Below, one piece after another: positions 2,364-19,841 of a stretch of 31,193 nucleotides of DNA (position 1 is the first letter of the stretch; each line of letters opens with the position of its first letter). The translations under genes were made by a program, and so were the position numbers. The stretch comes from a bacterium (GTDB lineage: Bacteria > BMS3Abin14), in the NCBI GenBank assembly GCA_020349685.1, contig CP070698.1, positions 1,693,208 to 1,724,400 on the forward strand, given 5' to 3'. Under the pieces are notes generated by a model. It searched no databases, was not told where the DNA came from, and was given only the letters and a program-made list of their open reading frames with translations.

Positions 2364-2374
2364 CGTATTTTCTC

Positions 2375-2677
2375 CTAGCCCTTCATTTGGTTGATCTCAT
2401 CCACATTGACCGTTTCCAGGTTCCGGAAGAGGGCCACCACGATGGCCAGCCCCAGTGTCGCCTCCGCTGCGGCGACGGTCATCACGAAGAAGACGAAAAC
2501 CTGCCCGGCGGGATTCTCGAGATAGTGGGAAAAGGCCACAAGGTTGATGTTCACGGCGCTGAGCATGAGCTCGATGGAAAGAAGGATGATGATCACGTTC
2601 CTTCTCATCAGCACACCCGTCACACCGATGACGAACAGGATGGCCGCAAGTATCAGGTAGTGAGACCGGGTGATCAT
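2375..2677 (-). CDS. nuoK: NADH-quinone oxidoreductase subunit K (100 aa)
   Basis: Three hydrophobic helices, RRN loop, both conserved Glu (SIELML, VAAAEA); ATGA overlap with the nuoJ stop. Confidence 0.96.
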
Positions 2678-3186
2678 TCCTTCTCCTCCCTTCTGGCGAG
2701 GACCATGGCCCCGAACATGACCACGAGAAGCACCAGAGAGGCCAGTTCGAAGGGGAAGAGGAATCTGGTGTAAAGGGAACCACCCACGGTAGAGGTGCTG
2801 TCTGCTCCGAGGCTCTCCACCAGTTCCACGAAGGGACCCGGGAAAATGCCCTGGACGGACAGGACGATGAGCAGGAGGATCAGAAGCACACCCACGATGC
2901 CCGCGAGGAAAGACTGACGGTGGGTGATCCGCTTTCCCTTTATCTCGGAGAGGTTAAAGAGGAAGACGACGAACAGGTAGAGGATCATGAGCGCCCCCGC
3001 CGGCACGAGGATCTGTATGGCAGCCAGGAATTCCGCCCCGAGGAGCACAAAGATCCCCGCCACGTGAAAGAAACACGGCACGAGGAAGATGACGGCGTGT
3101 ACCGGGTTGCCCCTCGAAACGGCCAGGAGGGCCGTTACCACAATCACAACGGCAAAATAGTAGAACATTATTTCTTGCAGACCCAT
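2674..3186 (-). CDS. nuoJ: NADH-quinone oxidoreductase subunit J (170 aa)
   Basis: [22 protein letters not shown] and [12 protein letters not shown] motifs; lies between nuoI and nuoK. Confidence 0.94.
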
Positions 3187-3196
3187 CTCTTCGCTC

Positions 3197-3643
3197 CTAA
3201 AGCCGATCGTAGCGGGGGTTATCCCCCTTTGTGAGCATCTGTTCCTTGGTGACCTTGAGTTTTCCGGGGTCCGTGATCGTCAACTCGAAATCCTGACCCA
3301 TGAAAACAGCATCCACAGGGCAAACTTCCTGGCAGTAACCGCAGTAGATGCAGAGCCCCAGATCGATGACGTAGCTGTTCACCACTTTCTCGTGATCCTC
3401 ACCTTCCGATGTCTCCATGGCGATGGCCCGGGAGGGACAGATCTCGGCGCAGAGCCCGCAACCCACGCAGCGTTCCTTGCCGTCCTCGTGACGCTTGAGG
3501 ATCTGTGCCCCCCGGAACCGCTCCGGGAGGTCGTAATAGACCTCCGGATACCTGAGGGTCACCGGCTTGGAAAAAAAGTAGCGGATCGTCAAGCTGAGGC
3601 CCTTGATCAGATCTGTCTGCAGGATGTTCGTCATCAAACCCAC
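3197..3643 (-). CDS. nuoI: NADH-quinone oxidoreductase subunit I, 2x[4Fe-4S] (148 aa)
   Basis: VTLRYPE, RFRG, CVGCGLCAEICP and CIYCGYCQEVCP. Confidence 0.96.
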   Translation of the reverse strand: MGLMTNILQTDLIKGLSLTIRYFFSKPVTLRYPEVYYDLPERFRGAQILKRHEDGKERCVGCGLCAEICPSRAIAMETSEGEDHEKVVNSYVIDLGLCIYCGYCQEVCPVDAVFMGQDFELTITDPGKLKVTKEQMLTKGDNPRYDRL

Positions 3644-3659
3644 TGTACTCTCCCGTTCC

Positions 3660-4700
3660 CTAATTGAGTTGGATCACTCTCAAAATGCCCGAGATGAAGA
3701 TGTTGAAGATGGCCAGCGGCAGAAGGACCTTCCACCCCAGCGACATGAGCTGGTCGTAACGGAGCCTGGGAAAGGTCCATCGAACCCAGACGAAGAAGAA
3801 CATGAATACGGCGACCTTGGAGAGGAACCAGACCACCGGCATGGCGTACAGGACCACGCCGGCCGGCAGCAGCCCCTCGATCATGGGCCCGATGACCGGC
3901 AGGGGCAGCCAGCCTCCGAAGAAGAGGGTCACCACGACACACGACGCGGAGATCATGGCCACGTATTCGGCCATCATGAACATGGCCCATCTCAGGCTTC
4001 CGTACTCGACAAAGTATCCGGCCACGAGCTCGCTCTCGGCTTCGGGCAGGTCAAATGGCAAGCGGTTGGTCTCGGCAAAAGCCGCCACCAGGAAAAGGAT
4101 GAAGCCGAGGAACTGGGGGATCACGAACCACTTGGGGATAAAGCCGAACCAGAGACCCTGCTGTGCCATGACGATCTTGGTCATGGACAGGGATCCCGAA
4201 TACATGAGCACCCCGATGACCGAAAGACCCAGGGAGATCTCGTAGCTGATCATCTGGGCGGAGGAGCGAAGCCCTCCAAGGAGGGCGTATTTGTTGTTCG
4301 AAGCCCAACCGGCCATGACGATCCCGAATACACCCAGCGAGGACACCGAGAGGATGTAAACCAGTCCGATGTTGATGTCGGATATCATGAGGTGCGGCCC
4401 CACCGGAATCACGGCAAAGGTTAGGAGAGCCGGCACAAAGGCCATGAGAGGGGCAGCGATGAAAAGGACCCGGTCCACATTGGTGGGGGTGATGTCCTCC
4501 TTGAGGAACAGCTTCAGACCGTCGGCAATGGGCTGGAAGATCCCAAGGGGGCCCACATACAGGGGCCCGTGGCGGTGCTGTATGTGGCCGCAGACCTTGC
4601 GTTCCACCCAGTTCATCACGGTCACTCCCCCGAGGGCCACCGTGATGATCCCGATGATCTTGAGGATGATGATAAGCAGATACAGACCGATGTTTTCCAT
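3660..4700 (-). CDS. nuoH: NADH-quinone oxidoreductase subunit H (346 aa)
   Basis: ERKV, QPIADGLKLFLKE, RSSAQMISYE, AETNRLPFDLPEAESELVAG, PRLRYDQLM. Confidence 0.97.
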   Translation of the reverse strand: MENIGLYLLIIILKIIGIITVALGGVTVMNWVERKVCGHIQHRHGPLYVGPLGIFQPIADGLKLFLKEDITPTNVDRVLFIAAPLMAFVPALLTFAVIPVGPHLMISDINIGLVYILSVSSLGVFGIVMAGWASNNKYALLGGLRSSAQMISYEISLGLSVIGVLMYSGSLSMTKIVMAQQGLWFGFIPKWFVIPQFLGFILFLVAAFAETNRLPFDLPEAESELVAGYFVEYGSLRWAMFMMAEYVAMISASCVVVTLFFGGWLPLPVIGPMIEGLLPAGVVLYAMPVVWFLSKVAVFMFFFVWVRWTFPRLRYDQLMSLGWKVLLPLAIFNIFISGILRVIQLN

Positions 4701-4723: not shown

Positions 4724-5722
4724 TCAGTACTCCATGGCGCCGGAGCGCTTGATCTCTCCCACCTTTTCCAGGAGGAAGAAGGCCTGGGTGTTTTCCGGGT
4801 TGAGCCTTATAGCCTCATTGAGGGTTTGTTCGGCCTTGTCGAGCATGCCGAGGTGGATGTAGCTGTTGCCCAGGTGATAGAGGGCGGCTGAATCCTGAGG
4901 ATCGAGTTCCCTGACTTTGCCAAAGCTCGAAGCGGCGTCCTCGTGCTGCCCTTTCCTTGCCTGTGCCACACCCCGGTGGTAGTAGGCGGAGGCGAATTTC
5001 GGCGACAGGGACAGCGCCCTGTCAAAAGCCTCGATGGTGTCGGTCATGTTCCCCTTGTGGAAGTAGACCTGCCCCAGCCAGTAGTAGGCCATGACGTATC
5101 CAGGGGAGATTTCCACCACTTTCTTGAGGGACTCGGCAGCCTCCTTGAGCATACCTTTCTGGAAATAGACGGTCCCGAGAACGTACAGCGCACGGGCAAA
5201 GCTGGGCGACCTTTCCAGGGCCTGGTTCAGCTCCTCCACCGCTGCATCCAGTTTGGCGTTCTTCTGGTGCAGCAGGGCCAGGCGGTAGTGGATCTGGGCC
5301 GTGTCCGGTATGATGCTGCGGACCTTCTTGAAGTGAAATTCGGAATCGGGAAGCAGGCCCATGGAGTAGTAGGCCATGCCCAGCCGGTAGTGGATCGCCG
5401 GCGAAGGGGGGTTTGCGGCCTCGGCCTTCTTGAAATAATCCAGTGCCAGCGAGAGCATGCCCTTGTCGTAATAGGCGACGCCCATGTAGTAATTGGTCAT
5501 CTGGAAGTCAGGAACCAGCTCGAGGGTCTCCTCCCAGCTCTTCAGGGCTTCATCGAAAAGACCCTGATGATACTGGGAGATCCCCTCCCGGTAAAGCCGC
5601 TCGGCCTTTTCCTGGTTGGAAAGGGTCTCCTGCTCCCGGGCAGAGACCTCCAACTTGTTGCCGCACTCCTTGCAGAAGCGGCTGTCATCGGGGATGATTA
5701 GGTTGCACTCCGGGCAGATCAT
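4724..5722 (-). CDS. Zinc-ribbon + tetratricopeptide-repeat protein (332 aa)
   Basis: N-terminal CPEC-x10-CKEC, then 8 consecutive 34-aa repeats of pattern Y-x-L-G-x-x-Y...A...P. Starts 1 bp after the nuoG2 stop, with GGGAGGG upstream. Confidence 0.88.
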   Translation of the reverse strand: MICPECNLIIPDDSRFCKECGNKLEVSAREQETLSNQEKAERLYREGISQYHQGLFDEALKSWEETLELVPDFQMTNYYMGVAYYDKGMLSLALDYFKKAEAANPPSPAIHYRLGMAYYSMGLLPDSEFHFKKVRSIIPDTAQIHYRLALLHQKNAKLDAAVEELNQALERSPSFARALYVLGTVYFQKGMLKEAAESLKKVVEISPGYVMAYYWLGQVYFHKGNMTDTIEAFDRALSLSPKFASAYYHRGVAQARKGQHEDAASSFGKVRELDPQDSAALYHLGNSYIHLGMLDKAEQTLNEAIRLNPENTQAFFLLEKVGEIKRSGAMEY

Positions 5723-5723
5723 C

Positions 5724-8504
5724 TTATTTCCCTCCCGAGACTCCGGGCCCTGTCTCCTCCGTGGCCCGGCGTTTCTTGTCCTGAATTTCCTGAACGGTTT
5801 TCTTTAGCCTGGTAACCTGGCTTTCACCGGCTCTTCGCTCGGCCTCAACTCTCTCTATCCTCTCGATACCGACATAGGTCAGGCCCCTTTCCCTGACGGT
5901 ATCGTACCCGACGAGGGCGTTGACGGGCACCTCCCTGAAGTGGGTCGGCACGAAGACCGTCCCGGGCATGCTCCTCTCGGTAACCTTGACCTTGACCTCT
6001 GTTATTCCCTTGAGACTGGTCAGGCGGACCCAGTCATTGGTTTCCAGTTCCAGCTCCTGGGCATCCGAGGGATGGATCTCGGCAACGGCTGTGGACGCAA
6101 CGGTATTGAGCCCTTTGGCCATGGTCGTGGTGGTTCCCGAGTGATAGAGGATCGTTCCGGGTATGAGCAGGTAGGGATAGTTGGCCGTGGCTTTTTTGGG
6201 CTCATGGAAACGGACCGGACGGGTGCGGCCCAGGCCGCTGGGAAAACGATCGTGGTGAAGGACCTCGGTACCGGGATGGTCGGGTCTGGGGCAGGGCCAG
6301 TGGATCCCGCTCTTCTCGAGACGTTCCGGGGTGATCCCCGCGTAAAAGGGGATCATGCGCGTGATCTCCCCGAGCACCTCCATGGCGGATCCGATCCCGT
6401 TGCTGTAACCCATGGCCTCCGACATTTCGGTCAGGATCCTCCAGTCGTCCCTCGTCTTGCCGGGGGAATCGATGGCCTTCCTGACCCTTTGGACCCGCCT
6501 GTCGGTATTGGTGAAGGTGCCGTTCTTTTCAGGCCCGCAGGAGGAGGGGAGAACCACGTCCGCAAAGAGAGCCGTCTCGGTGAGGAACATGTCCTGTACC
6601 ACCAGAAGATCCAGCTTTTTCATGGCCTCGATCACCCGCTCCTGATCGGGGAAAGAGGAGAGCGGGTTCTCGCCCATTATGTACATGCCCTTGAGCTTCC
6701 CCCCGGCGGCGGCTTCGATCATCCCCATGGCGTCCAGTCCAGGTTGAGAAGGAAGCTTGACACCCCACTGACCTTCGAACCAGTTTCTGATACCGTCATC
6801 GGTTACGGGCTGGTATCCGGGGAGGAACTCGGCCAGAGCCCCCATGTCCATGCACCCCTGGATGTTGTTGTACTCCGAGAGAGGGATGATCCCGGCGCCT
6901 ACCTTGCCGACGTTGCCGGTGACAAGAGCCAGGTTCGCGGCAGCTGCAACGGTATCCTCTCCCGTGTAGGGGCTGGCACCTCCCAGCGTGATGAGGATGG
7001 TGACCTTGCCGGCTGAGGCGATGGCCCTGGCCGCCTCCCTGATGGTCTCAGCCTTTATCCCGGTGACCTTCTCCATCCTTTCAGGTTCCGCACCCTTGAG
7101 AGACTCTCTGAGCTCCTCGAGACCCGTCACCCGTGACTGGCAGAACTTCTTGTTCTCAAGGCCTTCCTCCAGGATCACGGCGATTATGGAATTTAACAGC
7201 GCCACGCTGGTCCCCGGTTTGTGCTGCATCCAGGTCTGGGCGAAACGCGTGACCTTCACGCGTCTGCTGTTGGCCGCGATGAGTTTGGCCTTCCCTGACC
7301 GGACCTGCTTGAGGACCTTGAGTCCCGCGACATGGTCGTCCTCGGTGATGTTGGAGTCGATGGCAAGGATCAGGTTCGAATGCTGGAGGTCGTTCAGGGA
7401 GTTGGTCGGGGCTTCGACACCGAAGGCCTTCCTGAGGGCCTCCATCCCCGGGAAGTGGCCGAACCGGGCGATGGAGTCGACGTTGTTCGTGCCGACGACC
7501 GCCCTCATGAACTTCTGGAAAAGGTAGTTGTCCTCGTTGGTGCATCTGGCCGAAGAGATGCCGCCGAAGGCATCGGGACCTGCCTGAGAGCGGATCTTCT
7601 CAATTCCCCGCGCGATATGGTCGTAGGCCTCCTCCCAGGTCACCGGAACCAGTTCGCCATCCTGGCGCACCATCGGTTCGGTGATCCTGTCCGGGTGGTG
7701 GACGTACTCGTAGCCGAAGCGTCCCTTGCAGCAGAGGAACCCGTTGTTGTTGGAACCCTCGTCATCCACCCCCAGCACGTGGTAGATGTGGTTGCCCTTC
7801 ACCTCCAGGTGCAGAGTGCAGCCCACTCCGCAGAAGGGACAGGTCGTCCTCACCGGCGTCAACTCCCAGGCCGGCGCCGTGTGCTTGAAGATCCGGCTGT
7901 AGAGGGAGCCCACCGGACAGGCCTGCACACATTGACCGCAGAACTCGCAGTTCATCGGCTTGGCAAAGGAGGGCTCGACCACGGTGGGGAACCCGCGGCT
8001 GGCGAAATCGAATTCGCCCTCCGCCTGAACCTCGTCACATATCCTGACGCAGCGTCCGCAGAGGATGCAGCGGTTCTGGTTCATCTCGATGAGGGGGGAC
8101 AGGTGGTCGATCCTCTTTTCCACCTCGATGTGCCCGAACCTGCCGTAGTCACGGCCGTGCTCGAACACAAGGTCCTGGAGCAGGCACCGGCCCGACTGCG
8201 GGCACACGGGGCACTCCAGCGGATGGTAGGTGAGAAGAAGCTCCAGCACGGCCTCTCGGGCACGCTTGACCCGGGCCGTGTTCGAATGGACCTCCATACC
8301 ATCGGTCACAGGAACCACGCAGGAGGCGAAAAGCCTGTCCGTTCCCTCTACCTCGACCACGCACATGCGGCACGATCCGAAGGGGAGCAGGTACTTGTGA
8401 TCGCAGAACGTGGGGATGTCTATGTCCAGCTCCCGCGCTGCGTTCAGTATGGTGGTACCGCGCGGCACCTGGATTTTTTTACCGTCTATGGTGATCGTGA
8501 ACAT
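5724..8504 (-). CDS. nuoG: NuoG / formate-dehydrogenase-alpha-like Fe-S protein, copy 2 (926 aa); probably lacks a catalytic Mo/W centre
   Basis: [2Fe-2S] ligands (FCDH, GSCRMC, ASC), HPLECPVCPQSGRC, CILCGRCVRIC, CEFCGQCVQACP, CPFCGVGC..LCCKG, then a molybdopterin-oxidoreductase fold (MGENP, EKNGTFTNTDRRVQ). The metal-ligand position reads ARFGH. Confidence 0.85.
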   Translation of the reverse strand: MFTITIDGKKIQVPRGTTILNAARELDIDIPTFCDHKYLLPFGSCRMCVVEVEGTDRLFASCVVPVTDGMEVHSNTARVKRAREAVLELLLTYHPLECPVCPQSGRCLLQDLVFEHGRDYGRFGHIEVEKRIDHLSPLIEMNQNRCILCGRCVRICDEVQAEGEFDFASRGFPTVVEPSFAKPMNCEFCGQCVQACPVGSLYSRIFKHTAPAWELTPVRTTCPFCGVGCTLHLEVKGNHIYHVLGVDDEGSNNNGFLCCKGRFGYEYVHHPDRITEPMVRQDGELVPVTWEEAYDHIARGIEKIRSQAGPDAFGGISSARCTNEDNYLFQKFMRAVVGTNNVDSIARFGHFPGMEALRKAFGVEAPTNSLNDLQHSNLILAIDSNITEDDHVAGLKVLKQVRSGKAKLIAANSRRVKVTRFAQTWMQHKPGTSVALLNSIIAVILEEGLENKKFCQSRVTGLEELRESLKGAEPERMEKVTGIKAETIREAARAIASAGKVTILITLGGASPYTGEDTVAAAANLALVTGNVGKVGAGIIPLSEYNNIQGCMDMGALAEFLPGYQPVTDDGIRNWFEGQWGVKLPSQPGLDAMGMIEAAAGGKLKGMYIMGENPLSSFPDQERVIEAMKKLDLLVVQDMFLTETALFADVVLPSSCGPEKNGTFTNTDRRVQRVRKAIDSPGKTRDDWRILTEMSEAMGYSNGIGSAMEVLGEITRMIPFYAGITPERLEKSGIHWPCPRPDHPGTEVLHHDRFPSGLGRTRPVRFHEPKKATANYPYLLIPGTILYHSGTTTTMAKGLNTVASTAVAEIHPSDAQELELETNDWVRLTSLKGITEVKVKVTERSMPGTVFVPTHFREVPVNALVGYDTVRERGLTYVGIERIERVEAERRAGESQVTRLKKTVQEIQDKKRRATEETGPGVSGGK

Positions 8505-8553: not shown

Positions 8554-11500
8554 CTACTCTTCCGTGTCGCATCGGAGGCACCGTCGCGCCTCCTTGAGTG
8601 CCATCTCCTTGGTATAACCGAACTCCACCTCGGCGAAGTCCTTGAGCCTCTTTTCCAGCTCCATGGTCGGCATGGAAGGACGGACGAGATGCATGTCCTC
8701 CTCGGTGAGCTCAATGGCCTCCACGGGTTCCGTGTTGGGGATGGTTACCGAATACTTCGGGAGCACTTCCTCGCCGTTCAGGTAAAGCTCCATGTGGGCC
8801 GCGGCCCTCTTGCCGGCGCCGATGGCATCGATGACCATCCAGGGGCCTGTCACCACATCGCCCCCGGCGAAAACGCCCTCGACATTGGTCATCTGGGTGA
8901 AGGGGTGGACGTCGATGCTGTTCCACTTGCTGATGCTCAGACCGTGACCCTCCCCGAGGAAACTTAGATCGGGCTGTCCGCTGACCGCCACGATGAGGTT
9001 GTCCAGTTCGAGCTCGAACTCCGATCCCTCCACCGGAACGGGCCTGCGGCGCCCCGAAGAGTCAGGTTCGCCCAGCTCCATGCGGATGCACTGCACACCG
9101 GTGAGCTTGCCGCCCTTTGTCAGGACCTTTACGGGAGCCACGAGCAGTTCCAGGTTGGCTCCCTCGTGGAGGGCTTCTTCGATCTCCATATCGTCGGCGG
9201 GCATCTCCTTGCGCGTTCTGCGGTAGAGGATCGTCACCTCCGACCCCATTCTCAGGGAGACCCGGGTGGCATCGATAGCCGTGTTCCCGCCACCGACGAC
9301 GGCGACCTTTTTCCCCAGGGGCACCTTTTCCCCCAGGTTGATCTTCCGAAGGAAGGCCAGGCTCTCGTACACCCCTTGGGCGTCCTCTCCGGGGATGCCC
9401 ATTTTCAGATCCACGTGGGCGCCGGTGGCGATGAAGATGGCCTCGTAATCGAGCCGCAGCTGCTCGAAGGGGACCTTGACCCCTATGGGCGTTTTCAGGT
9501 GGAACTCCGCCCCCATCTTTTCGATGGCACTGATCTCGTGCTGGAGGGTGTCCCGCGGCAGACGGTACTCAGGGATGCCCAGCGTGAGCATGCCTCCCAT
9601 GATCCTCTGGGCTTCGAAGATAACGGGGCTGAAATCGCTCTTGCCCAGGTAGTGGGCCGCCGTCAGTCCTGCCGGTCCTCCGCCGACGATGGCGACTCTC
9701 TTTCCTTTTCCGGAGATCTTTTTCACGTGGATGCTGTACTTGCCCGAGATCTCCTCCTTGGCGGCGAAATCGGCCGCGACCCTTTTGAGAGTCCTGATGC
9801 TGATGGGTTCGTCCAGGTCGCCCCGCCTGCACTTGCTCTCGCAGGGGTGGTGGCATACCCGCCCGCAGACCGCCGGGAGGGGGTTGGTCATGCGTATGAG
9901 TTCCAGGGCTTCGCTGTACTTGCCCTGGCCGATCAGTGTCACGTAGGCGGGAACGTCTGTCTCAATGGGGCAGACGTGCTGGCACGGGGAAGAGATGATC
10001 TTCTTGCAGACGACAGCCGGACATCTCTTTTCCGTGATGTGGGCCTCGTACTCTTTCCGGAAGTACCGGATGGTGGAAAGGACCGGGTTGGCGGCCGTCT
10101 GTCCAAGGCCGCAAAGGGATGTGTTCTTGATCTCCTGGCCCAGTTCCTCCAGGTTCTTGAGGTCCTCCATGTTGCCATGTCCCGAAGTGATCCTGTCCAG
10201 GATCCCGAGCATGGTCCTCGTTCCCATGCGGCACGGGACGCACTTTCCGCATGATTCGGCTGTGGTAAAGTTCAGGAAGAACCTTGCCACGTCCACCATG
10301 CAGGTGCGTTCGTCCATGATGACCACACCGCCCGACCCCATCATGGCTCCGGCCTGGATCAGAGAATCATAGTCGATGGGAGTTTCCACGATCTCGGCGG
10401 GCAGGCATCCTCCGGAGGGACCTCCGAGCTGGGCTGCCTTGAACTTGCCGCCGCCAACGATACCACCGCCTATGTCATAGATGATCTCCTTGAGCTGGGT
10501 GCCCGCGGGGACCTCGATGAGTCCGGTGTGGTTGATCTTGCCGGTGAGGGCAAAAACCTTGGTGCCTTTGGTGCCCTCGGTGCCGATCCCGGCATACCTG
10601 TCCGCACCCTTCAGTATGATGGGCGGCACACATGCGAAGGTCTCGACGTTGTTGATGTTCGAAGGCTGGCCGTAAAGACCCTTGTGCGCCGGGAAGGGGG
10701 GTCGTGACCGCGGCATTCCCCTCTTGCCCTCGATGGAGGCCATAAGGGCCGTTTCCTCACCGCAGACGAAGGCCCCGGCCCCTTCCTTGATCCTCAGATG
10801 GAAGGAGAAGTCGGTGCCGAAGATCTTCTCTCCCAGGTAGTTCCTTTCCTCGGCCTGTCCGATGGCTGTTTTGAGCCTCTCGATAGCCAGGGGGTACTCT
10901 GCCCTGCAGTAAATGTAGCCGTATTGCGCGCCGATGGCATAGGCCGCGATGACCATACCCTCGATGACGGCGTGGGGATCCCCTTCGAGAACGCTGCGGT
11001 CCATGAAGGCTCCCGGGTCGCCCTCGTCGGCGTTGCAGATCAGGTATTTGGGGTCGCCTGCGGCATTGGCGCAGAACTCCCATTTCAGGCCTGTGGGGAA
11101 ACCGCCGCCACCGCGTCCCCTCAGCCCGGATTTCTTAACCACCTCCCGGACGATGGTGGGAGACATGGTCGTCAGCGCTTTTTCCGCCGCCTGGTAACCG
11201 TCGCTGTCCAGGTAGTCCTCGATCTTGTCCGGGTCTATGAAACCGCAGCGCCGCAGGACGATGCGGTTCTGCTTCTTGAAGAAGTCCAGTTCGTCGTAGG
11301 TGGGGATACCCTTGTAGATCTTTTCCCCGTTGGTGGTTATCTGTCCGATGGCGTAATCGGTTATCGGCTTGCCCTTGATCACGTGGTTCTCGATGATCTG
11401 CTGGATCATCTCTGGTTCGACCTTGGCATAGGTGACCCTGGCCATCCCCGGCAGGGAAACGTCTACAAGGACCTCCTGGTAGCACATGCCTATGCAGCCG

Positions 11501-11634
11501 GTCTTCAGGATCGGCACATCGATGGACATCTTGCCCATCTGCTGCTCCACCTCCGCCAGTACGCCCCTTGCGCCGGACGCGAGGCCGCAGGTCCCCATTC
11601 CAATGACGATAAGTTTGTCGCTGTCGTTTCCCAT
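8554..11634 (-). CDS. HydB/NuoF-like flavoprotein fused to a GltD/NfnB/SfrB-like FAD/NADP(H) oxidoreductase domain (1026 aa)
   Basis: N-terminal thioredoxin-like Fe-S domain (GTCG..GCIGMC); NuoF core (GLRGRGGGGFP, CNADEGDPGAFMDR, GAGAFVCGEETAL, ESCGKCVPCR..SLCGLG); then PCQHVCP, CGRVCHHPCESKC, GGGPAG, GIPEYRLP, GGGNTAID, YRR, FAGGD. Confidence 0.92.
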   Translation of the reverse strand: MGNDSDKLIVIGMGTCGLASGARGVLAEVEQQMGKMSIDVPILKTGCIGMCYQEVLVDVSLPGMARVTYAKVEPEMIQQIIENHVIKGKPITDYAIGQITTNGEKIYKGIPTYDELDFFKKQNRIVLRRCGFIDPDKIEDYLDSDGYQAAEKALTTMSPTIVREVVKKSGLRGRGGGGFPTGLKWEFCANAAGDPKYLICNADEGDPGAFMDRSVLEGDPHAVIEGMVIAAYAIGAQYGYIYCRAEYPLAIERLKTAIGQAEERNYLGEKIFGTDFSFHLRIKEGAGAFVCGEETALMASIEGKRGMPRSRPPFPAHKGLYGQPSNINNVETFACVPPIILKGADRYAGIGTEGTKGTKVFALTGKINHTGLIEVPAGTQLKEIIYDIGGGIVGGGKFKAAQLGGPSGGCLPAEIVETPIDYDSLIQAGAMMGSGGVVIMDERTCMVDVARFFLNFTTAESCGKCVPCRMGTRTMLGILDRITSGHGNMEDLKNLEELGQEIKNTSLCGLGQTAANPVLSTIRYFRKEYEAHITEKRCPAVVCKKIISSPCQHVCPIETDVPAYVTLIGQGKYSEALELIRMTNPLPAVCGRVCHHPCESKCRRGDLDEPISIRTLKRVAADFAAKEEISGKYSIHVKKISGKGKRVAIVGGGPAGLTAAHYLGKSDFSPVIFEAQRIMGGMLTLGIPEYRLPRDTLQHEISAIEKMGAEFHLKTPIGVKVPFEQLRLDYEAIFIATGAHVDLKMGIPGEDAQGVYESLAFLRKINLGEKVPLGKKVAVVGGGNTAIDATRVSLRMGSEVTILYRRTRKEMPADDMEIEEALHEGANLELLVAPVKVLTKGGKLTGVQCIRMELGEPDSSGRRRPVPVEGSEFELELDNLIVAVSGQPDLSFLGEGHGLSISKWNSIDVHPFTQMTNVEGVFAGGDVVTGPWMVIDAIGAGKRAAAHMELYLNGEEVLPKYSVTIPNTEPVEAIELTEEDMHLVRPSMPTMELEKRLKDFAEVEFGYTKEMALKEARRCLRCDTEE

Positions 11635-11664: not shown

Positions 11665-12210
11665 CTATTCTGCTCTCTTCATCGTGTCCATTTCTCGAAG
11701 GTTATCCATGATCCTCTCGGTCTTGACGGAGTCAAGCGTTCCGTGGGCATCGTTGTCGATCATGATGACGGGGGCCAGGCCGCAGGCGCCGAGGCAGGCC
11801 ACCTTTTCGAAGGAGGCGAACATGTCCTCGGTCGTTTCTCCATGGCCTATGCCGAGCATGTGCTCGAGCTTGCTGATCACCGTTTTCCCGCCCCTGACGT
11901 GACAGGCCGTCCCGCTACACGCCCGGATGATGTGCCTGCCGCGAGGGGTCAGATGGAACTGGGTATAGAAGGTCAGGACCCCGTAGACCTGGCTGCGGTA
12001 AAGCCGCATCCTGTCGGCCACAACGTTGGCCGCCTCCTCGGGCACGTAACCGTAGACCGTCTGGACATCCTGAAGGACGGGGATCAGCATCCCCTTTGTT
12101 TCCTTGAGGGAATCGATGATCCTGTGCACCGGAGCCAGGTCTATCTGCTCCTCCTCTTCCTCGATCCCGGCGTCCTGCTTGACATCCTCTAGAGTGACAT
12201 CGGCGCTCAC
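11665..12210 (-). CDS. nuoE: NuoE/HydC-like [2Fe-2S] subunit, copy 2 (about 181 aa)
   Basis: CSGTACHVRG and ACLGACGLAPV. Start placed at GTG 12210 (GGAGGT upstream, GTGA overlap with the upstream stop); the ORF track extends to 12222. Confidence 0.9.
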   Translation of the reverse strand: MSADVTLEDVKQDAGIEEEEEQIDLAPVHRIIDSLKETKGMLIPVLQDVQTVYGYVPEEAANVVADRMRLYRSQVYGVLTFYTQFHLTPRGRHIIRACSGTACHVRGGKTVISKLEHMLGIGHGETTEDMFASFEKVACLGACGLAPVIMIDNDAHGTLDSVKTERIMDNLREMDTMKRAE

Positions 12211-12674
12211 CGCCACCTCCACATGTAGTTCACCATATCGATATATCTTTCGTTCATACTCCGCAGCTGGTCGATCAGTTCCCCCACCAGGAGCTTCATA
12301 ATCTTCACGGCATCGGCGGGATACTTCTCGACGAACCTGTCGAAGTCGTTCTTGTCGAGAAGGTAGAGGGCACAGTCACCATGTGCCGAAGCGTTGGCCG
12401 AGTGGGTGCCCTCCGAGAGGAAGGTCATGATACCAGCGAACCCGCCCGCGTTCACCATGCCCAGGCTCTGGGCTTCCCCTTCCTTGGCCCTCTTGGTGAT
12501 CTTGACGACACCGCTCCCCACCAGATAGAGGTCGCCTCCCAGCGTGCCTTCGTTGAAAATGGACTCCTTGTCCTGATAGGTCCTCTTCTGCAGAGCGCCG
12601 GCCAGATATGAGAGCGCCTCCTCCGAGATTTCCTTGAGGGACTCTATCTCCTTGAGTTGGCTAATTTCGATCAT
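12207..12674 (-). CDS. Stand-alone cyclic-nucleotide-binding-fold (Crp N-terminal type) protein, no HTH (155 aa)
   Basis: IFNEG..LYLVGSGVVKI..LGMVNAGGFAG..HSANASA followed by a C-helix. ATG 12674 is preceded by GAGGAGG; the ORF track start at 12737 overlaps nuoG1. Confidence 0.85.
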   Translation of the reverse strand: MIEISQLKEIESLKEISEEALSYLAGALQKRTYQDKESIFNEGTLGGDLYLVGSGVVKITKRAKEGEAQSLGMVNAGGFAGIMTFLSEGTHSANASAHGDCALYLLDKNDFDRFVEKYPADAVKIMKLLVGELIDQLRSMNERYIDMVNYMWRWR

Positions 12675-12687
12675 TTGGTAATCCTCC

Positions 12688-15369
12688 TCAGGCTTTGACC
12701 ACACGCACGTGGACGATGGCCGTTCGTGCCTGGTCATCGGGACCTGGAATCATGAGGGCGCTCACGGGAGCGTTTTTAAAGTGGCGCGGCAAAAAGAGCA
12801 TCCCTGGGGCTATATCCTCGGAATAGCTGACAGTAACGGTAAATTCACCCTGGGTTGAGACGGCGCGGACCGAGCTTCCGTCCTGGACATCGAGACCCAT
12901 GCCCGTCTGGGGGTTCATCAAAAGGGTGGCCTGGGCAGCCAGCTGGTTCAAGGATTCCGAATACCTGGTAAAGCTGCCGGAATGGAAAAGCAGGTCTCCG
13001 AGCACCAGCGTCATGGGATATTTGGAATCGGCACTGTGCGTTTCCCAAACAGGCACAGCAGCGAAAAACTGCTTATCCTTGCTCAGGCCTTCCGGCAGAA
13101 GGTGCCTCGTACCCAGATATCCCTCGTGATAGACCTCCCGGGCGTCATCGCGGGAGAAAGGCCATTGAAGCCCGTTGTCGGCCAGGATCTGATGGTTGAT
13201 ACCGGAATAGAAGGGCACCACACTGGCTATCTCGTCCATTACCTCGGAGGAGTTCAGATAGTTCATCCCCTCTTCGCCGCAGGCGACACCAAGGTCGGAG
13301 AAGATCTTCCAATCGGGCAGGCTGTGTCCCAAGCCGTCGATGGCTTTGCTGGTTTTCTGGACGCGCCTTTCAACGTTGGTAAGCGTACCGTTCTTCTCTG
13401 CCAGGGAAGTGGCGGGAAGCACCACGTCGGCCAGTTTGGCGGTATCGGTCAGGAAGAGCTCCTGGACCACGAGGAACTCCATCTTCTTGAGCGCCTTTTC
13501 CAGGTCCTCCCCTCCCGGGAACGTTGCCAGAGGGTTGACGCCGGCGAGATAGAGGGCTTTCAGCTTCCCGGCCGCGGCGGCCTGGATCATCTCATAGGCA
13601 CTCTTCCCCCCGTCCTTGGGCACTTTGCCATTCCAGGCCTTCTCCACTCTCTTTCTTTCGGAATCAGAACTGACTGCGGCATGCCCGGGCAGCCAGTTGG
13701 GGGAAACGCCCATGTCCAGAGCGCCCTGGAAGTTGGTGCCTGACAGGATGGGGTAGAGACCGCATCCTTCCTGTCCCAGCTTTCCCGTGAGCACGAGCAG
13801 ATCGATGACCGCCTCCAGGACCTTCTCACCCCCGGCCTGCAGTACCGCTGTCTCGCCGAAGATGATGGAGGCCTTCTTGGCACCGGCGAACTCCCTGGCC
13901 GTCTGGGTGATCTCATCGACGCTGCAATCCGTTTCCCGTGCGATCTCCTTGAGGCTCTTGTCCCTGACGGAGAATTCGAGTTCGGAGAATTTGCCGTACT
14001 TCCCCAGGGTCTCGCTGTCGTAGAGCCCCTCCTCCAGGATCACCTTGATCAGCCCCTTCACCAGGGCGAGCTCTTTCCCCACCGGGACGGCGAGGGATCT
14101 CCGGGCCAATCTGGAAAGAGCTGTCTTTCCGGGGTTGACCTCCGTTACGAGCCCTCCCCGGCGGATAGCCTGTTTCACTTTCAGTCCGGAAATGGGGTTG
14201 GCCACGGTGATGTCGCAGCCGACAATGAGCAGGGCGTCGGTATAGTTGAGATCGTCCAGGGAGTTGGTGGCGGCCCGCACGCCCATCCGCTTTTCCAGGA
14301 CGGGAACGACCGTCCTGGACCAGAGGCCGGAGGGAGTATCCACGTTGTTGCTGGAAAAGACCATCCGCATGAGCTTCTGGAAAAGGTAGAGATCCTCGTT
14401 GGTGAGCCTGTCGGAAGCGATGCCGCCGACGGCTTTGCCACCGCTTTCCCGGGATATGCGCTTCATGTTCCTGGCAACCTCTTCCAGGGCGCTTTGCCAG
14501 GTCGTTCGTCTCAAGACACCATCGGCGTCCCGCACCATCGGGGCGGTGATCCTGTCAGGGTGATTGATGACGTCATAGCCGAAGAAGCCCTTGGAACAGA
14601 GGCTTCCCATGTTGAGCCCCCGCCCCTCGGCGTGCGTGACACGATACACGACGTTGTCGCGATAGTTGTAGCTGAGGGTGCAGCCGCAGCTGCAGTAGGG
14701 ACAGATAGCTTCCGATTTTTCCATCTCCCAGGTCCGGACCTTGTGTTTCATGGCCCTGGAAGTAATGGCACCAACGGGACAGGACCAGATGCAGTGGCTG
14801 CAGTATTCACAGTCCAGCGATTTGTCCATGAACGGGCCCACCACGGTGGCTGCGCCCCTGTAGGACATGCCCAGGGCGGTCACTCCCTGGATCTCTTCAC
14901 AGACCCTGACGCAGCGCTTGCACTGGATGCATCTGTTGAGGTTTCGATCGATGAGGGGGCTGATGATATGGTCCCTGAGAATCCTTTTTTTACCTTTGAA
15001 GCGCGTCTCCGCGCTGCCGTGCTTGAAAGCCAGGTCCTGGAGGGTGCACTCGCCGGAGGCATCGCATACCGTGCACTCCAGGGGATGGTTGATGAGAAGG
15101 AACTCCAGCATCATCCTCCGGGCCTTCTCGACCCTCGGCGTGTCGGTGCGGACCACCATCCCGTCGTTGACGGCGAGGGTGCAGGCGGTCTGCAGTTTCC
15201 CCATCCCTTCGACCTCCACGAGACACATCCGGCACGCCCCGAGATCACTCAGGCGCGCCTGGTGGCAGAAGGTGGGAATGTGGATCCCGAGCTTGCTGGC
15301 CGCATCGAGGACGTTGACGTGGCCGTCGACCATGATCTGCCTGCCATCTATTGTAAGCCGAACCATCAT
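12688..15369 (-). CDS. nuoG: NADH-quinone oxidoreductase subunit G, copy 1 (893 aa)
   Basis: FCHQ, GACRMC, TAC, HPLECTVCDASGEC, CIQCKRCVRVC, CEYCSHCIWSCPVGA, CPYCSCGC..LCSKG, followed by a degenerate molybdopterin-type fold; overlaps the nuoF1 stop. Confidence 0.92.
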   Translation of the reverse strand: MMVRLTIDGRQIMVDGHVNVLDAASKLGIHIPTFCHQARLSDLGACRMCLVEVEGMGKLQTACTLAVNDGMVVRTDTPRVEKARRMMLEFLLINHPLECTVCDASGECTLQDLAFKHGSAETRFKGKKRILRDHIISPLIDRNLNRCIQCKRCVRVCEEIQGVTALGMSYRGAATVVGPFMDKSLDCEYCSHCIWSCPVGAITSRAMKHKVRTWEMEKSEAICPYCSCGCTLSYNYRDNVVYRVTHAEGRGLNMGSLCSKGFFGYDVINHPDRITAPMVRDADGVLRRTTWQSALEEVARNMKRISRESGGKAVGGIASDRLTNEDLYLFQKLMRMVFSSNNVDTPSGLWSRTVVPVLEKRMGVRAATNSLDDLNYTDALLIVGCDITVANPISGLKVKQAIRRGGLVTEVNPGKTALSRLARRSLAVPVGKELALVKGLIKVILEEGLYDSETLGKYGKFSELEFSVRDKSLKEIARETDCSVDEITQTAREFAGAKKASIIFGETAVLQAGGEKVLEAVIDLLVLTGKLGQEGCGLYPILSGTNFQGALDMGVSPNWLPGHAAVSSDSERKRVEKAWNGKVPKDGGKSAYEMIQAAAAGKLKALYLAGVNPLATFPGGEDLEKALKKMEFLVVQELFLTDTAKLADVVLPATSLAEKNGTLTNVERRVQKTSKAIDGLGHSLPDWKIFSDLGVACGEEGMNYLNSSEVMDEIASVVPFYSGINHQILADNGLQWPFSRDDAREVYHEGYLGTRHLLPEGLSKDKQFFAAVPVWETHSADSKYPMTLVLGDLLFHSGSFTRYSESLNQLAAQATLLMNPQTGMGLDVQDGSSVRAVSTQGEFTVTVSYSEDIAPGMLFLPRHFKNAPVSALMIPGPDDQARTAIVHVRVVKA

Positions 15370-16652
15370 GATGCTGCCTCTGTTTCCGCCTCACCGGAAC
15401 CGCTGTTCCTCAAATAGGCAAGATATTCCCCCCGGAATTTCTTGATCGTACTCTCCACACAGCTGACGGACGCCTCGCCCAGGCCGCAGAAGGATGTGGA
15501 CCGGATCCCTTCGCATATCTCCAGGAGGAGATCCAGATCCTGCTCGCTGGCGCTGCCTTCGAGGATCTGGTCGAGGATCCTGCGCACCCAGAACAGACCC
15601 TCCCGGCAGGGCGTGCATTTACCGCACGATTCGTGCTCGAAAAACTTGATGAGCACGTGGGTGGCCTTGACCATATCGGCCGTGTCATCCAGTACGATGA
15701 CAGCCCCCGAACCCAGCATGCTCCCGGCTACGGCCAGGGAGTTGAAATCCAGCTTGACGTCCAGCTGGGACTCGTCGAGGCAGGCCGACGAGGCCCCCCC
15801 GGGGAAGGCCGCCTTGAAGGTTCTTCCTTCTCTCATGCCTCCCGCGTTATCGAAGATAAGCTCCCGCAGGGTCACCCCCATGGGAAGCTCGTAGACACCG
15901 GGGCGGGCCACATGTCCGCTCACGGAATAGAGCTTGGTTCCCGGGCATTCGGGAGTGCCGATGGAGGCGTACCAGGCGCCGCCCCTGAGGATGATGGGGG
16001 GCACCGATGCCAGGGTCTCGACGTTGTTGACGACGGTGGGAAGGTTGCTGTAGCCCACATTCACCGGGAAGGGAGGGCGGATCCTCGACTGTCCCCTTTT
16101 TCCCTCGAGAGATTCGATAAGGGCCGTTTCCTCACCGCAGACGTAAGCCCCGGCACCGCGGTGTACCGTTACGGAGAAGTTGAAACCGGAGTTGAGGATG
16201 TTGTCGCCAAGGAAGGAACGGCTCGTGGCTTCCGCGATGGCCCTTTCCAGGATCCTGGCGCCCTGGGGGTACTCTCCCCGGATGTAGATAAAGCCCTTTT
16301 CGGCGCCTGCGGCGTAACCGGCCAGCGCCATCCCCTCCAGGATGGCATGGGGGTCGTTCTCGATGAGCACCCGGTCCTTGAAGGTACCCGGCTCCCCCTC
16401 ATCGGCGTTGCAAATTATGTATTTGGGCTTCCTGCGGTCCCGGGAGGCGAAATCCCATTTCATCCCGGCTGGGAACCCGGCTCCTCCCCGCCCCCTCAAC
16501 CGTGCGATCTTGACCTCGTCGATAACTTCTTCGGGGGTCATCTCATTGAGGGCACGCGGCAGGGCCACATACCCCTCGTTGACCAGGTACGAGTCGATAT
16601 GGGCCGGGTTGGGCCTGCTTACGTTTCGTGTAAGGATCTTCAGTTCGCTCAC
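15366..16652 (-). CDS. nuoF: NADH-quinone oxidoreductase subunit F, copy 1 (428 aa)
   Basis: LRGRGGAGFPAG, CNADEGEPGTFKDR, GAGAYVCGEETAL, ESCGKCTPCREG..SFCGLG; canonical length with no extra domains. Confidence 0.96.
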   Translation of the reverse strand: MSELKILTRNVSRPNPAHIDSYLVNEGYVALPRALNEMTPEEVIDEVKIARLRGRGGAGFPAGMKWDFASRDRRKPKYIICNADEGEPGTFKDRVLIENDPHAILEGMALAGYAAGAEKGFIYIRGEYPQGARILERAIAEATSRSFLGDNILNSGFNFSVTVHRGAGAYVCGEETALIESLEGKRGQSRIRPPFPVNVGYSNLPTVVNNVETLASVPPIILRGGAWYASIGTPECPGTKLYSVSGHVARPGVYELPMGVTLRELIFDNAGGMREGRTFKAAFPGGASSACLDESQLDVKLDFNSLAVAGSMLGSGAVIVLDDTADMVKATHVLIKFFEHESCGKCTPCREGLFWVRRILDQILEGSASEQDLDLLLEICEGIRSTSFCGLGEASVSCVESTIKKFRGEYLAYLRNSGSGEAETEAAS

Positions 16653-17140
16653 GGCTTCTCTCGGTATGAGTTAAGGATCCGGCTGACCGAATCCACCGTT
16701 ACGCTCCGGTGCAGGTCGCCGTCGATCATCATGGCCGGGGCATGATCGCAGGCGCCGATGCACTCCACTTCCACGAGAGTGAAGACACGGTCAGGGGTCG
16801 TGGCGCCGACGTCGATGCCGAGCTCTCTTTTGAGCCCCTGAAGGACCTCCTCGGCCCCGTTGACGTGGCAGCTGAGGTTGCGGCAAACCTGAACCAGGTG
16901 CCTGCCGACCGGCTCCGTGAAAAGCATGGTGTAGTAGGTCGCGACCTCGAAGGTCCGGACGTGGGGCACCCCGATGAATTCTGCCACAAAGGTCAGGGCC
17001 TGTTCGGAAAGGTGTCCCTGCGCCCCCTGCACGTAATGCAGCAGAGGAAGGATAGCTGAGGCAGGTTCCTGGTAGCGGGCCCGAATGTTCTCCATGTCAG
17101 AGAACTCCTTGGCGCTGAAGACCTCCGTGCTTTTCATCAT
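16649..17140 (-). CDS. nuoE: NADH-quinone oxidoreductase subunit E, copy 1 (163 aa)
   Basis: VCRNLSC and ECIGACDHAP; 4-bp overlaps with nuoD and nuoF1. Confidence 0.95.
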   Translation of the reverse strand: MMKSTEVFSAKEFSDMENIRARYQEPASAILPLLHYVQGAQGHLSEQALTFVAEFIGVPHVRTFEVATYYTMLFTEPVGRHLVQVCRNLSCHVNGAEEVLQGLKRELGIDVGATTPDRVFTLVEVECIGACDHAPAMMIDGDLHRSVTVDSVSRILNSYREKP

Positions 17141-18309
17141 CGGTCGATCTCCCCCAGCACGATGTCCAGGCTTCCGATAATGGCGACGACGTCCGCCAGC
17201 ATGTTCCCCTTTGCCATCGTCAGCAGGGACTGAAGGTTAATGAATGACGGGGGGCGGATCCGGAGCCTGTACGGTTTGGGGCTGCCATCGCTCACGATGT
17301 AGAATCCGATCTCGCCCTTGGGGGCCTCGATGGTGGAATAAACCTCGCCCCTGGGGGGAGCCAGACCCTCTACCACAAGCTTGAAATGGTGGATCATGGC
17401 TTCTATGGAACCCTCCAGGCGCTCCTTGTCAGGCATGACGAACTTGGCCGAGCGCTCGATGAAGGGACCTTCGGGCATGCCCTCGATGAGCTGCCGCAGC
17501 ATCCTGGAGCTCTGACGCATCTCCCTGATCCTCACCATGTACCGGGCGTAGACGTCGCCTTCCTCAAGAACGGGGACCATGAAATCGAGTTCCCCGTAAA
17601 CCTCGTAGGGTTCGTCCCTCCTGATATCCCAGTCCACCCCGGACGCCCTCAAGGCCGGGCCTGAGAGACCGAGGCTCAGGGCGTCCTCCCGGCTGATGAA
17701 ACCGACATTCTTCGTGCGCCTGAGCCAGATGCGGTTCTTGCTCAGAAGCCTCTCGTATTCGTTGATCTTGACGTCGAACTTGTCCAGGAAGGTTTTGATC
17801 TTGCCGGTGAAACCGGGGGTCATGTCCCTGACCACCCCGCCAGGGCGGAAATAGGTGGGCATCATCCGGGTGCCGGCGATCTCCTCGATGAGGTCCAGGA
17901 TGTCCTCCCGTTCCCTCAGGCCGTACATCAGGACGGTGACGGCACCGATATCAGCCGCGTGGGTTCCGAGCCAAAGGAGATGGCTCATGATCCTGGTCAG
18001 CTCGGCAATGGTGGTCCTTATGTACTGAGCCCTTCTGGGAACCTCGATGCCCAGGAGCTTTTCCACCGCCAGGATGTAGGCCAGGTTGTTGCTCCCGGAG
18101 GCGAGGTAGTCCAATCTGTCCGTAAGGGGAAGGACCTGCAGATATTTTTTGCTCTCGGAAAGCTTCTCGACGCCCCTGTGCAGATAACCGATATCCGGCA
18201 CCGCATTGACGACCACCTCACCGTCCAGCTCCAGAATGATCCGGAGAACCCCGTGTGTGGAGGGGTGGTGGGGACCCATGTTGATTGTCATGATCTCCTG
18301 CCTGGCCAC
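17137..18309 (-). CDS. nuoD: NADH-quinone oxidoreductase subunit D (390 aa)
   Basis: NMGPHHPSTHGVLR, GYLHRGVEK, RLDY, EAPKGE, terminal GSLDIVLGEIDR; no NiFe CxxC motifs. Confidence 0.97.
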   Translation of the reverse strand: MARQEIMTINMGPHHPSTHGVLRIILELDGEVVVNAVPDIGYLHRGVEKLSESKKYLQVLPLTDRLDYLASGSNNLAYILAVEKLLGIEVPRRAQYIRTTIAELTRIMSHLLWLGTHAADIGAVTVLMYGLREREDILDLIEEIAGTRMMPTYFRPGGVVRDMTPGFTGKIKTFLDKFDVKINEYERLLSKNRIWLRRTKNVGFISREDALSLGLSGPALRASGVDWDIRRDEPYEVYGELDFMVPVLEEGDVYARYMVRIREMRQSSRMLRQLIEGMPEGPFIERSAKFVMPDKERLEGSIEAMIHHFKLVVEGLAPPRGEVYSTIEAPKGEIGFYIVSDGSPKPYRLRIRPPSFINLQSLLTMAKGNMLADVVAIIGSLDIVLGEIDR

Positions 18310-19764: not shown

Positions 19765-19841
19765 GATAAGCCCTCCCTCGGAAAAGCTGCTCGGACCGGC
19801 ACAAAACGACACCATGCGGCGCCTTGAGTGCGGCTCATGAC

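Follow-up and report, generated by a model that had tools for sequence, protein, structure and literature searches.

A proposed Bfu-type input module with an NADP(H)-type cassette in place of the ferredoxin tail, encoded beside canonical NuoEFG in a complex I operon of BMS3Abin14

The Bfu family of electron-bifurcating enzymes has been defined by Schut et al. (2022, PMC9304861), who also predicted a Nuo-Bfu form of complex I, for example in Geobacter sulfurreducens, in which BfuABC replaces NuoEFG. In Bfu enzymes, the electrons of the A chain arrive at a B1-FMN-C1 group (FMN, flavin mononucleotide), and a mobile C-terminal 2x[4Fe-4S] domain passes low-potential electrons to ferredoxin. This tail, with the clusters B3 and B4, belongs to the published definition of the bifurcating subunit BfuB (PMC9304861). 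A BfuB 'sub-type I' of another build has been described in the [FeFe] hydrogenases of Hydrogenedentota, where DPD_II and flavin adenine dinucleotide (FAD)/nicotinamide adenine dinucleotide (phosphate) (NAD(P)) domains stand in place of B3 and B4 (PMC11406978). Here, we describe a window of 31,193 nucleotides, that is, the whole stretch of DNA analysed, from a bacterium of the BMS3Abin14 lineage (assembly GCA_020349685.1, contig CP070698.1, positions 1,693,208 to 1,724,400). Its complex I (nuo) operon encodes two input modules, the canonical E1-F1-G1 and a second set, E2-F2-G2, in which the NuoF-type subunit F2 combines a BfuB-type core with a GltD-like cassette predicted to bind FAD and NADP(H). 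We propose, with a probability of about one half, that E2-F2-G2 is an alternative input module of complex I in which the ferredoxin port has been turned into an NADP(H) port.

The operon lies on the minus strand and is tightly packed, in the order nuoA-B-C-D, E1-F1-G1, a gene for a cyclic-nucleotide (cNMP)-binding domain, E2-F2-G2, a tetratricopeptide repeat (TPR) gene and nuoH-I-J-K-L (Table 1). From the cNMP gene to nuoH the intergenic gaps are -16 to 49 nucleotides (nt), and a scan for promoters and terminators found nothing splitting the operon (21 terminator-like sites against 14.6 +/- 4.0 in shuffled sequences). As in Nuo-Bfu, a HydABC-like E-F-G set of the BfuABC type is located in the middle of the nuo cluster, between nuoD and nuoH. 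Unlike Nuo-Bfu, the operon retains canonical NuoEFG, adds the cNMP and TPR genes, and encodes a B subunit with the NADP(H)/FAD cassette in place of the B3/B4 tail. The canonical nature of the first set is supported by curated models: F1 scores 580.5 bits on NCBIfam nuoF_fam (TIGR01959, cut-off 558.65) and G1 scores 471.2 on NCBIfam NuoG (cut-off 470.05), whereas F2 stays below the nuoF_fam cut-off with 494.3 bits. An earlier reading of this DNA (the original prediction) had regarded the location of a NuoF-GltD fusion inside a nuo operon as the unusual part. The presence of BfuABC genes among nuo genes had already been described (PMC9304861); what stands is the NADP(H) cassette beside canonical NuoEFG. 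In the literature searched, supplements excluded, neither a cassette-type subunit in a nuo operon nor two EFG sets per operon was described; the searches turned up only Nuo-Bfu, Stn/Nfn, the Hydrogenedentota fusion and NUO-2 of Nitrospina (PMC3578206). BfuB-GltD fusions and Nuo-Bfu operons are already published and, as far as we searched, the new element is their combination, beside canonical NuoEFG.

What identifies F2 as a bifurcating-type subunit? Together with SLBB, the Pfam matches to Complex1_51K (1e-47) and NADH_4Fe-4S (1.5e-34) span residues 166-532, and the C-terminal part matches Fer4_20 (1.5e-25, residues 530-628) and Pyr_redox_2 (1.6e-29, residues 646-939); these matches are far beyond chance. 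In a search of PDB sequences, residues 10-548 matched the B subunits of the bifurcating enzymes NiFe-HydABCSL, NfnABC, Stn and HydABC (7t2r_B, 9n5u_B, 9bov_B, 8oh5_B, 7q4v_B) at 3.5e-222 to 5.9e-207, and the match to Thermus thermophilus Nqo1 was weaker (8.8e-120). An AlphaFold2 (AF2) model of F2 (117-row alignment, mean predicted local distance difference test score 89.1, predicted template modelling score 0.82) superposed on NfnB 9bp5_B with a VIA-align Z of 57.7 and a root-mean-square deviation of 1.7. All the strings cited in the original prediction are present in the translations, namely EGDPGAFMDR (204-213), GTKVF (357-361), GGPSGGCLP (404-412), TCMVD (444-448) and HITEKRCPAVVC (532-543) in F2, and the counterparts EGEPGTFKDR, TKLY and GGASS in F1, which has neither the N- nor the C-terminal extras. 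The assignment of F2 as a BfuB-type subunit is upheld by the PDB matches. In the sets compared, the three motifs tell the two kinds of subunit apart, 9/9 F1-type from 96/97 Bfu-type sequences; for the first motif this outcome is in part built in, because loci L008-L087 were retrieved by a pattern containing DEGDP. Such 'bifurcation signatures' are not equal to BfuB membership, because the B3/B4 tail is part of the definition: F2 has the FMN/NAD(H) core with B1 and the B2 site with its His and Cys, and lacks the C-terminal domain with two CX2CX2CX3CP motifs.

The ligands of the B1 [4Fe-4S] cluster are C462, C465, C468 and C508, and the ligand columns of the core are invariant in 117 fusion proteins. 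When the published ligand lists (PMC9304861; PMC12018979) were mapped through the alignment, the B2 site of F2 comprised C445, T483, H532, C538 and C543. C445 and T483 lie upstream of the hinge; T483 occupies the variable fifth position, and the other four ligands are invariant in the same 117 proteins. F1 lacks four of the five. The original prediction had read this region as a C..C..H..C..C set; the strings are there, but 3Cys+His(+Thr) sites of this kind have been assigned to zinc, not to a cluster, in 2025 cryo-electron microscopy papers (PMC11829005; PMC12018979), and the Cys of GGC (C410) is not among the listed ligands and is also found in F1 (GGASSAC). Likewise, the proposed N-terminal thioredoxin-like domain is present but its 'Fe-S' label is not sustained, as it has three Cys (C16, C47 and C51), the same three as T. 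sibiricus NfnB 9n5u_B, in which zinc replaces the [2Fe-2S] cluster (PMC12018979).

Beyond this core, residues 549-1023 match residues 102-567 of NfnA (9bov_A, 5e-121) and 102-566 of StnC (8oh5_C), which together with the Pfam matches confirms that an NADP-type GltD/NfnB-like domain replaces the ferredoxin tail, as originally predicted. The cluster-binding part contains C551, C555, C590, C594, C598, C602 and K617, among which C555, C594, C598 and K617 align with C108, C147, C151 and K170, reported as the proximal-cluster ligands of NfnA (PMC11829005). Lys170 has also been reported for StnC, whereas NfnB has Glu at that position (PMC10482914). The motifs GGGNTA (781-786) and YRRT..EMPA (804-813; YRR 804-806) recur in 9bov_A, 9n5u_A, 8oh5_C and 4ylf_B, each of which binds NADPH according to its paper. 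The last 38 residues of F2 align with the N-terminus (9-44) of T. maritima NfnB 4ylf_B, which makes the cassette a circular permutation like those of StnC and NfnA. Two further cluster ligands, C1019 and C1022, are predicted in this tail, and the distal cluster presumably draws its ligands from C551, C602, C1019 and C1022. The ligand columns, including K617, C1019 and C1022, and the NADPH-type motifs are invariant in the 117 fusion proteins. The cassette is predicted to be self-contained, with FAD and two [4Fe-4S] clusters besides its NADP(H) site.

Seven residues separate C543, the last hinge ligand, from the start of the cassette at C551, and in ferredoxin-type homologues of the same family a CxxCxxCxxxCP tail begins 12 residues past the same Cys. 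A single rigid superposition of the AF2 model brought its residues up to 607-614 into alignment with the tails of full-length B subunits (9bp5_B 1-576, 8oh5_B 1-579, 9n5u_B 3-585 and 9n5v_B 2-591), 8 to about 25 residues past the core. Contigs from three sediment metagenome runs (three studies; one run may be the source sample) span the fusion junction at nt 9990/9991. Because these contigs bridge the junction, the fusion is real DNA and not an assembly artefact.

The closest described relatives of this arrangement differ in where the cassette is placed. The Stn/NfnABC enzymes (S. ovata 8oh5, C. saccharolyticus 9bov, T. sibiricus 9n5u) resemble the second set in their BfuBC-type core, permuted GltD-like cassette, Lys at the proximal cluster, NADPH-type motifs and large subunit with a formate dehydrogenase (FDH)-like domain minus its catalytic residues. 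Their cassette, however, sits in the A (NuoG-like) subunit after the [2Fe-2S] domain and feeds the mid-potential chain, a contrast already drawn in the original prediction and borne out by the alignments (see also PMC10482914), whereas that of F2 forms the C-terminus of the B subunit. In addition, their B subunit keeps the ferredoxin tail, which serves a third substrate, F2 lacks B3/B4, and C590 of F2 is found in neither NfnA nor StnC. The Hydrogenedentota sub-type I shares the B-subunit domain architecture of F2, and fusions of the same kind with HydA partners occur in Bacillota, Nitrospiraceae and Armatimonadota loci. Unlike that hydrogenase in a soluble cluster, F2 has a NuoG/FdsA-like partner and is encoded inside a nuo operon, and the F2 cores of the family do not group with HydA-partnered fusions (FastTree). 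In place of NuoI, Mbx-like complex-I-type operons carry a GltD-related flavoprotein (Degli Esposti 2015, PMC4758237); here too a GltD-like NAD(P)H module is joined to a complex-I-type membrane machine, but in those operons it takes another subunit position, without a NuoF/Bfu core and in a different complex.

The partners of F2 are of a corresponding kind. E2 has its best PDB match in 7t2r_C (2.8e-48, compared with about 1e-23 for NuoE chains) and carries both [2Fe-2S] Cys pairs, as a BfuC partner with C1 does. G2 aligns end to end with Rhodobacter capsulatus FdsA (6tg9_A, 1.9e-178), its best full-length match, and the three-subunit layout is that of FdsABG. In contrast to FdsABG, the catalytic residues are replaced in G2 (FdsA C386 by G349, nt 7458-7460; R587 by S543, nt 6876-6878; His387 is kept), and FdsB lacks the zinc-site His and the cassette of F2. 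The catalytic-position Cys is also missing in the G2 orthologues of two related genomes, G001 and G012. All five cluster motifs of G2 are common to G1. Its Fer2_4 domain (2-76) is followed directly by NADH-G_4Fe-4S_3 (83-119) with no inserted cassette, and Pfam finds molybdopterin-type domains without an H-cluster domain such as an [FeFe]-hydrogenase partner has. Because the catalytic Cys and Arg are replaced while the cluster motifs are kept, we regard G2 as an inactive FDH-like NuoG/BfuA, as in Stn/Nfn. G2 also has a charged C-terminal extension of ~45 residues (about 880-926; window 5724-5870, minus strand), present in G012 and absent from G1 and from the G2 of G001.

How is this arrangement distributed among relatives? 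The phylum comprises 16 species genomes, all of one family. Both sets, with a cassette-type F2, occur in the window and eight relatives (G002, G003, G005, G006, G008, G010, G011 and G013; some loci are cut by contig ends), at 73-94% identity and with no stops. G012 has both sets with a ferredoxin-tail F2. G001 (same genus, 99% complete) and G007 have only E2-F2(ferredoxin tail)-G2 between nuoD and nuoH, exactly the Nuo-Bfu form, and no F1-type match was found in either at E <= 1e-50; G009 has only E1F1G1. Because the Bfu-type set is the only EFG set in the G001 and G007 operons, the G2 lineage can be the sole NuoG. Two loci depart from these types. In G004, otherwise of the first type, F2 is split near residue 412 between two places on one contig, ~1.46 Mb apart, the one (L121) with nuoD-E1-F1-G1-cNMP-E2 and F2 1-415 and the other (L122) with F2 412-end, G2, TPR and nuoH onward, through either rearrangement or assembly error. 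G007 additionally encodes an E2-F2(cassette) pair that stands alone and lacks a nearby G gene (L110, G007:C155, 9748-13397); it is flanked by genes for a Glx-tRNA synthetase, an AMP-binding enzyme and a FadL-like protein.

The junction where the cassette starts is also where the ferredoxin tails of G001, G007 and G012 begin. A FastTree was built from 96 N-terminal parts, one of 97 rows having been left out because it fell short of 481 residues. In this tree, the 13 F2 cores of the family form one clade whatever their tail (support 100), which adjoins the Geobacteraceae Nuo-Bfu subunit and Nitrospirota sequences (91). Within it, G012 with its ferredoxin tail is sister to G006 with its cassette, a member of the same genus (98), and the tail has changed at least twice within the family. 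The other fusions are dispersed in the core tree, at least four changes being needed. In a quick IQ-TREE of 45 cassettes, supported by Shimodaira-Hasegawa-like approximate likelihood ratio tests only, the family cassettes are monophyletic (100) and sister to that of fusion G017 (92). From these two trees, we conclude that a Nuo-Bfu-type B subunit has exchanged its tail for a fusion-type cassette. Two other sources of the cassette were rejected: the NfnB-like gene of the same genome, which is 42% identical, non-permuted and not a row of the cassette tree, and a Stn-type A subunit, since the family cassettes stand apart from 13 of the 14 A-inserted cassettes, as from seven solo GltD-like genes of other genomes (100), in the quick tree.

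We propose E2-F2-G2 as a second, alternative N module for the single complex I of this genome, derived from the Nuo-Bfu kind, in which the mobile ferredoxin-serving tail was replaced at the same hinge by the permuted GltD-like cassette. The module would then have three ports, with the F2 FMN serving NAD(H), the cassette FAD serving NADP(H) via the gated E2 [2Fe-2S] branch, and the G2 cluster chain leading through NuoI and NuoB to menaquinone (MQ). FAD/NADP(H) would stand at the end of the gated branch because the cassette begins seven residues past C543 and the model superposes on the B tails. In this way, complex I would most likely oxidise NADPH together with NADH (NADH + NADPH + 2 MQ -> 2 MQH2), or run the reverse reaction, and the module may be energetically coupled. 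The tight gene spacing, the single NuoD and the position between nuoD and nuoH count for an alternative head; a prediction of the complex between G2(81-860) and NuoI, run without controls, is neutral as to docking (scores of 0.00 and 0.16 against a mark of 0.32).

Several points weigh against this proposal. The cassette is assigned to the low-potential branch from a predicted model and linker length, and E2F2G2 would have to dock on the membrane complex where E1F1G1 is also made. The published Bfu mechanism was derived with ferredoxin as the low-potential partner; it is not obvious that this term suits NADP(H), with its potential of about -380 mV, and the coupling logic may therefore differ. 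G2 is much nearer to FdsA, a soluble protein, with 609 bits, whereas the solved NuoG proteins do not exceed 278 bits. The genome already contains an ordinary NfnAB-like pair (L003, G000:C1:545501-549751; 1477-3808, minus strand), that is, a non-permuted GltD-like protein of 480 residues beside a PyrK-like protein of 292 residues, and E2F2G2 is therefore not its only NADH/NADPH link. Outside the phylum, no nuo membrane genes were found near the 13 fusions examined, several of them on short contigs, and the partners there are of soluble types ([FeFe] hydrogenase, FDH-like, NiFe).

Such observations could also be read as signs that E2F2G2 is a soluble, rearranged Stn/NfnABC-like, ferredoxin-independent NADH/NADPH transhydrogenase or diaphorase that is co-transcribed with the nuo genes without docking, which we consider less probable although still a serious contender. 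All three subunits are nearest to soluble enzymes (NfnABC/Stn, HydABC and FdsA), such fusions elsewhere occur in E-F-G clusters in which no nuo genes were found, StnC, in a soluble enzyme, forms tetramers through its dead FDH-like domain (PMC10482914), and canonical E1F1G1 is on hand for complex I. Against a soluble enzyme, nuoD/G1 and nuoH flank the set in all dual-module loci examined, the nuo operons of G001 and G007 have its ferredoxin-type orthologue as their sole EFG set, and the F2 core groups with the Geobacteraceae Nuo-Bfu subunit. The first option of the original prediction was true bifurcation at the FMN of F2, with NADH as the mid-potential donor and one electron passing downhill to menaquinone and one uphill to NADP+, in other words a quinone-driven and, in reverse, proton-motive-force-linked transhydrogenase. 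The elements of the B1-FMN-C1 'flavobicluster' (a concept of PMC11829005) are all present, the cassette is placed by the model where the low-potential branch would end, and no PntB match was found in the genome, whose marker completeness is 81.9%. We nevertheless hold this option to be doubtful, as in every characterised Bfu enzyme covered by PMC9304861 NAD(H) is the high-potential and the A branch the mid-potential partner, so that the stoichiometry would be new; moreover, a Lys ligand is the mark of Stn-type cassettes, in which the FAD is described as non-bifurcating (PMC10482914), and the NfnAB-like pair is present.

Two further explanations carry little weight. G2 scores 651.8 bits on NCBIfam Fdh-alpha, just under the cut-off of 666.25, E2 matches the FDH gamma model of NCBIfam, and the end-to-end alignment of G2 with FdsA would also suit an NAD(P)+-dependent formate dehydrogenase or another FdsGBA-type molybdopterin enzyme. 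The exchange of the Mo-ligand Cys386 for Gly and of Arg587 for Ser, with no Cys in G001 or G012 either, makes this very improbable, and StnC and NfnA have FDH-like domains that are described as inactive remnants too (PMC10482914; PMC11829005); a formate dehydrogenase function of G2 was rejected on its active-site residues. Least credible of all is that the second set is a decaying, functionless duplicate. Two EFG sets in one operon look redundant and the F2 gene of G004 is split, but ten full-length orthologues at 73-94% identity have no stops, all cofactor ligands are invariant in the 117 fusion proteins, and near-identical copies of the stretch are found in sediment metagenomes from at least eight studies.

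The cNMP-domain gene, whose product probably starts at M22 (nt 12674) and has ~155 residues, is present in 11/11 dual-module loci and in 0/3 single-module loci of the family, and the protein may be a regulator or assembly factor choosing between heads. Dual-module loci retain the TPR gene, as does the G007 operon with its Bfu-type set only; the G001 and G009 operons lack it. The genome is a single contig of 2.03 Mb with a single NuoD match, no match to PntB or to haem-copper oxidase, and seven POR_N matches, which suggests an anaerobe whose metabolism is ferredoxin-linked and which has one complex I body. One metatranscriptome library contains short contigs that correspond, with 0-2 differences, to G2, the cassette, G1 and nuoD; they hint only weakly at expression, as DNA can occur in such libraries. 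In RNA library X20, 11/30 bins were without cover, which is not evidence of silence.

Fusions of this kind are widespread, as the original prediction had stated and as the domain-architecture search bears out. Among the matches listed, 120/120 database relatives carry PF01512, PF14691 and PF07992; those outside the close clade are 52-59% identical, and the few named by taxon belong to Pirellulales, Latescibacterota, KSB1 and Omnitrophica. In the genome loci examined, 11/80 were flagged as fusions (L074 being an end-of-contig fragment), and G017 and G033 add two. Partners were typed for 10 of these 13, all but L034, L061 and L074, as [FeFe] hydrogenase (3), FDH-like (2), truncated molybdopterin-like (3), NiFe-linked (1) and polyferredoxin (1). 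One Dehalococcoidia metagenome-assembled genome has three GltD-type modules in a single locus (L012, 7052-17977): an A-like protein with an inserted cassette (732 residues), a B-cassette fusion (1028 residues) with an FDH-like partner (913 residues), and a solo GltD-like protein (465 residues). The first two cassettes are sisters in the quick tree (100).

Table 1. Genes and F2 domains of the operon, by position in the window
Feature	Position	Strand	Basis
nuoL	429-2363	-	Pfam
nuoK	2375-2677	-	Pfam
nuoJ	2674-3186	-	Pfam
nuoI	3197-3643	-	Pfam
nuoH	3660-4700	-	Pfam
TPR gene, between G2 and nuoH	4724-5722	-	Pfam TPR families
G2, FdsA-like NuoG/BfuA	5724-8504	-	Pfam, NCBIfam, PDB sequence search
F2, BfuB-type NuoF with GltD-like FAD/NADP(H) cassette, 1026 residues	8554-11634	-	Pfam, PDB sequence search
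F2 989-1026, permuted tail ending RCLRCD (C1019, C1022)	8557-8670	-	Alignment
F2 646-955, FAD and NADP(H) Rossmann folds	8770-9699	-	Pfam Pyr_redox_2
F2 549-628, cluster-binding part of cassette	9751-9990	-	Pfam Fer4_20
F2 532-543, hinge with H532, C538, C543 of B2 (zinc-type) site	10006-10041	-	Alignment and published ligand lists
F2 ~120-548, NuoF core: FMN/NAD(H) site, B1 [4Fe-4S], four-helix bundle	9991-11277	-	Pfam
F2 1-100, N-terminal thioredoxin-like domain (B5 site)	11335-11634	-	Alignment to 9n5u_B, 9bov_B
E2, BfuC/HydC-type NuoE	11665-12222	-	Pfam 2Fe-2S_thioredx 1.9e-48
cNMP-binding-domain gene, between G1 and E2	12207-12737	-	Pfam cNMP_binding 1.9e-17
G1 (canonical input module)	12688-15369	-	Pfam; NCBIfam NuoG passed
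F1 (canonical input module)	15366-16652	-	Pfam; NCBIfam nuoF_fam passed
E1 (canonical input module)	16649-17140	-	Pfam, NCBIfam
nuoD	17137-18309	-	Pfam
nuoC	18321-18965	-	Pfam
nuoB	18827-19381	-	Pfam
nuoA	19378-19851	-	Pfam

Elsewhere in the window, we noted the following. The open reading frames of nuoB and nuoC as listed share 139 nt (18827-18965), and the real start of nuoC probably lies further downstream, because relatives align only from residue 24-46 on. On the plus strand, a cluster at 23443-29826 encodes a cytochrome b and three c-type multihaem cytochromes, which contain 11, 9 and 10 CXXCH motifs and of which one is NapC/NirT-like; the cluster is possibly a quinol-oxidising module of the extracellular-electron-transfer type. 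A protein with Put_DNA-bind_N and CoA_binding domains is encoded at 29720-30475 (plus strand), an architecture that we take to be that of Rex-type redox-sensing repressors.

The entry of electrons from NADPH and ferredoxin into the quinone pool of anaerobes is poorly resolved, and Nuo-Bfu has so far only been predicted. What is notable in this lineage is the presence of two heads in one operon together with a series of operon types within a small phylum, which forms a natural experiment in which the operons have the canonical head, a Bfu head of either the ferredoxin or the NADP(H) type, or two of these heads together. We speculate, tentatively and with odds well below even, that one complex I has two exchangeable heads, a plain NADH head and a bifurcating Bfu-type head that makes it a quinone- and proton-motive-force-linked NADH/NADPH transhydrogenase, with the cNMP protein helping to choose between them. 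E2-F2-G2 is a defined three-gene set that is open to expression and assay. If the second head docks, it would provide a complex I with exchangeable input modules and a direct NADPH port, and would bear on the evolution of the N module, on the flavobicluster mechanism of Bfu enzymes, where a two-electron nucleotide instead of ferredoxin would occupy the gated branch, and on redox balancing in sediment bacteria.

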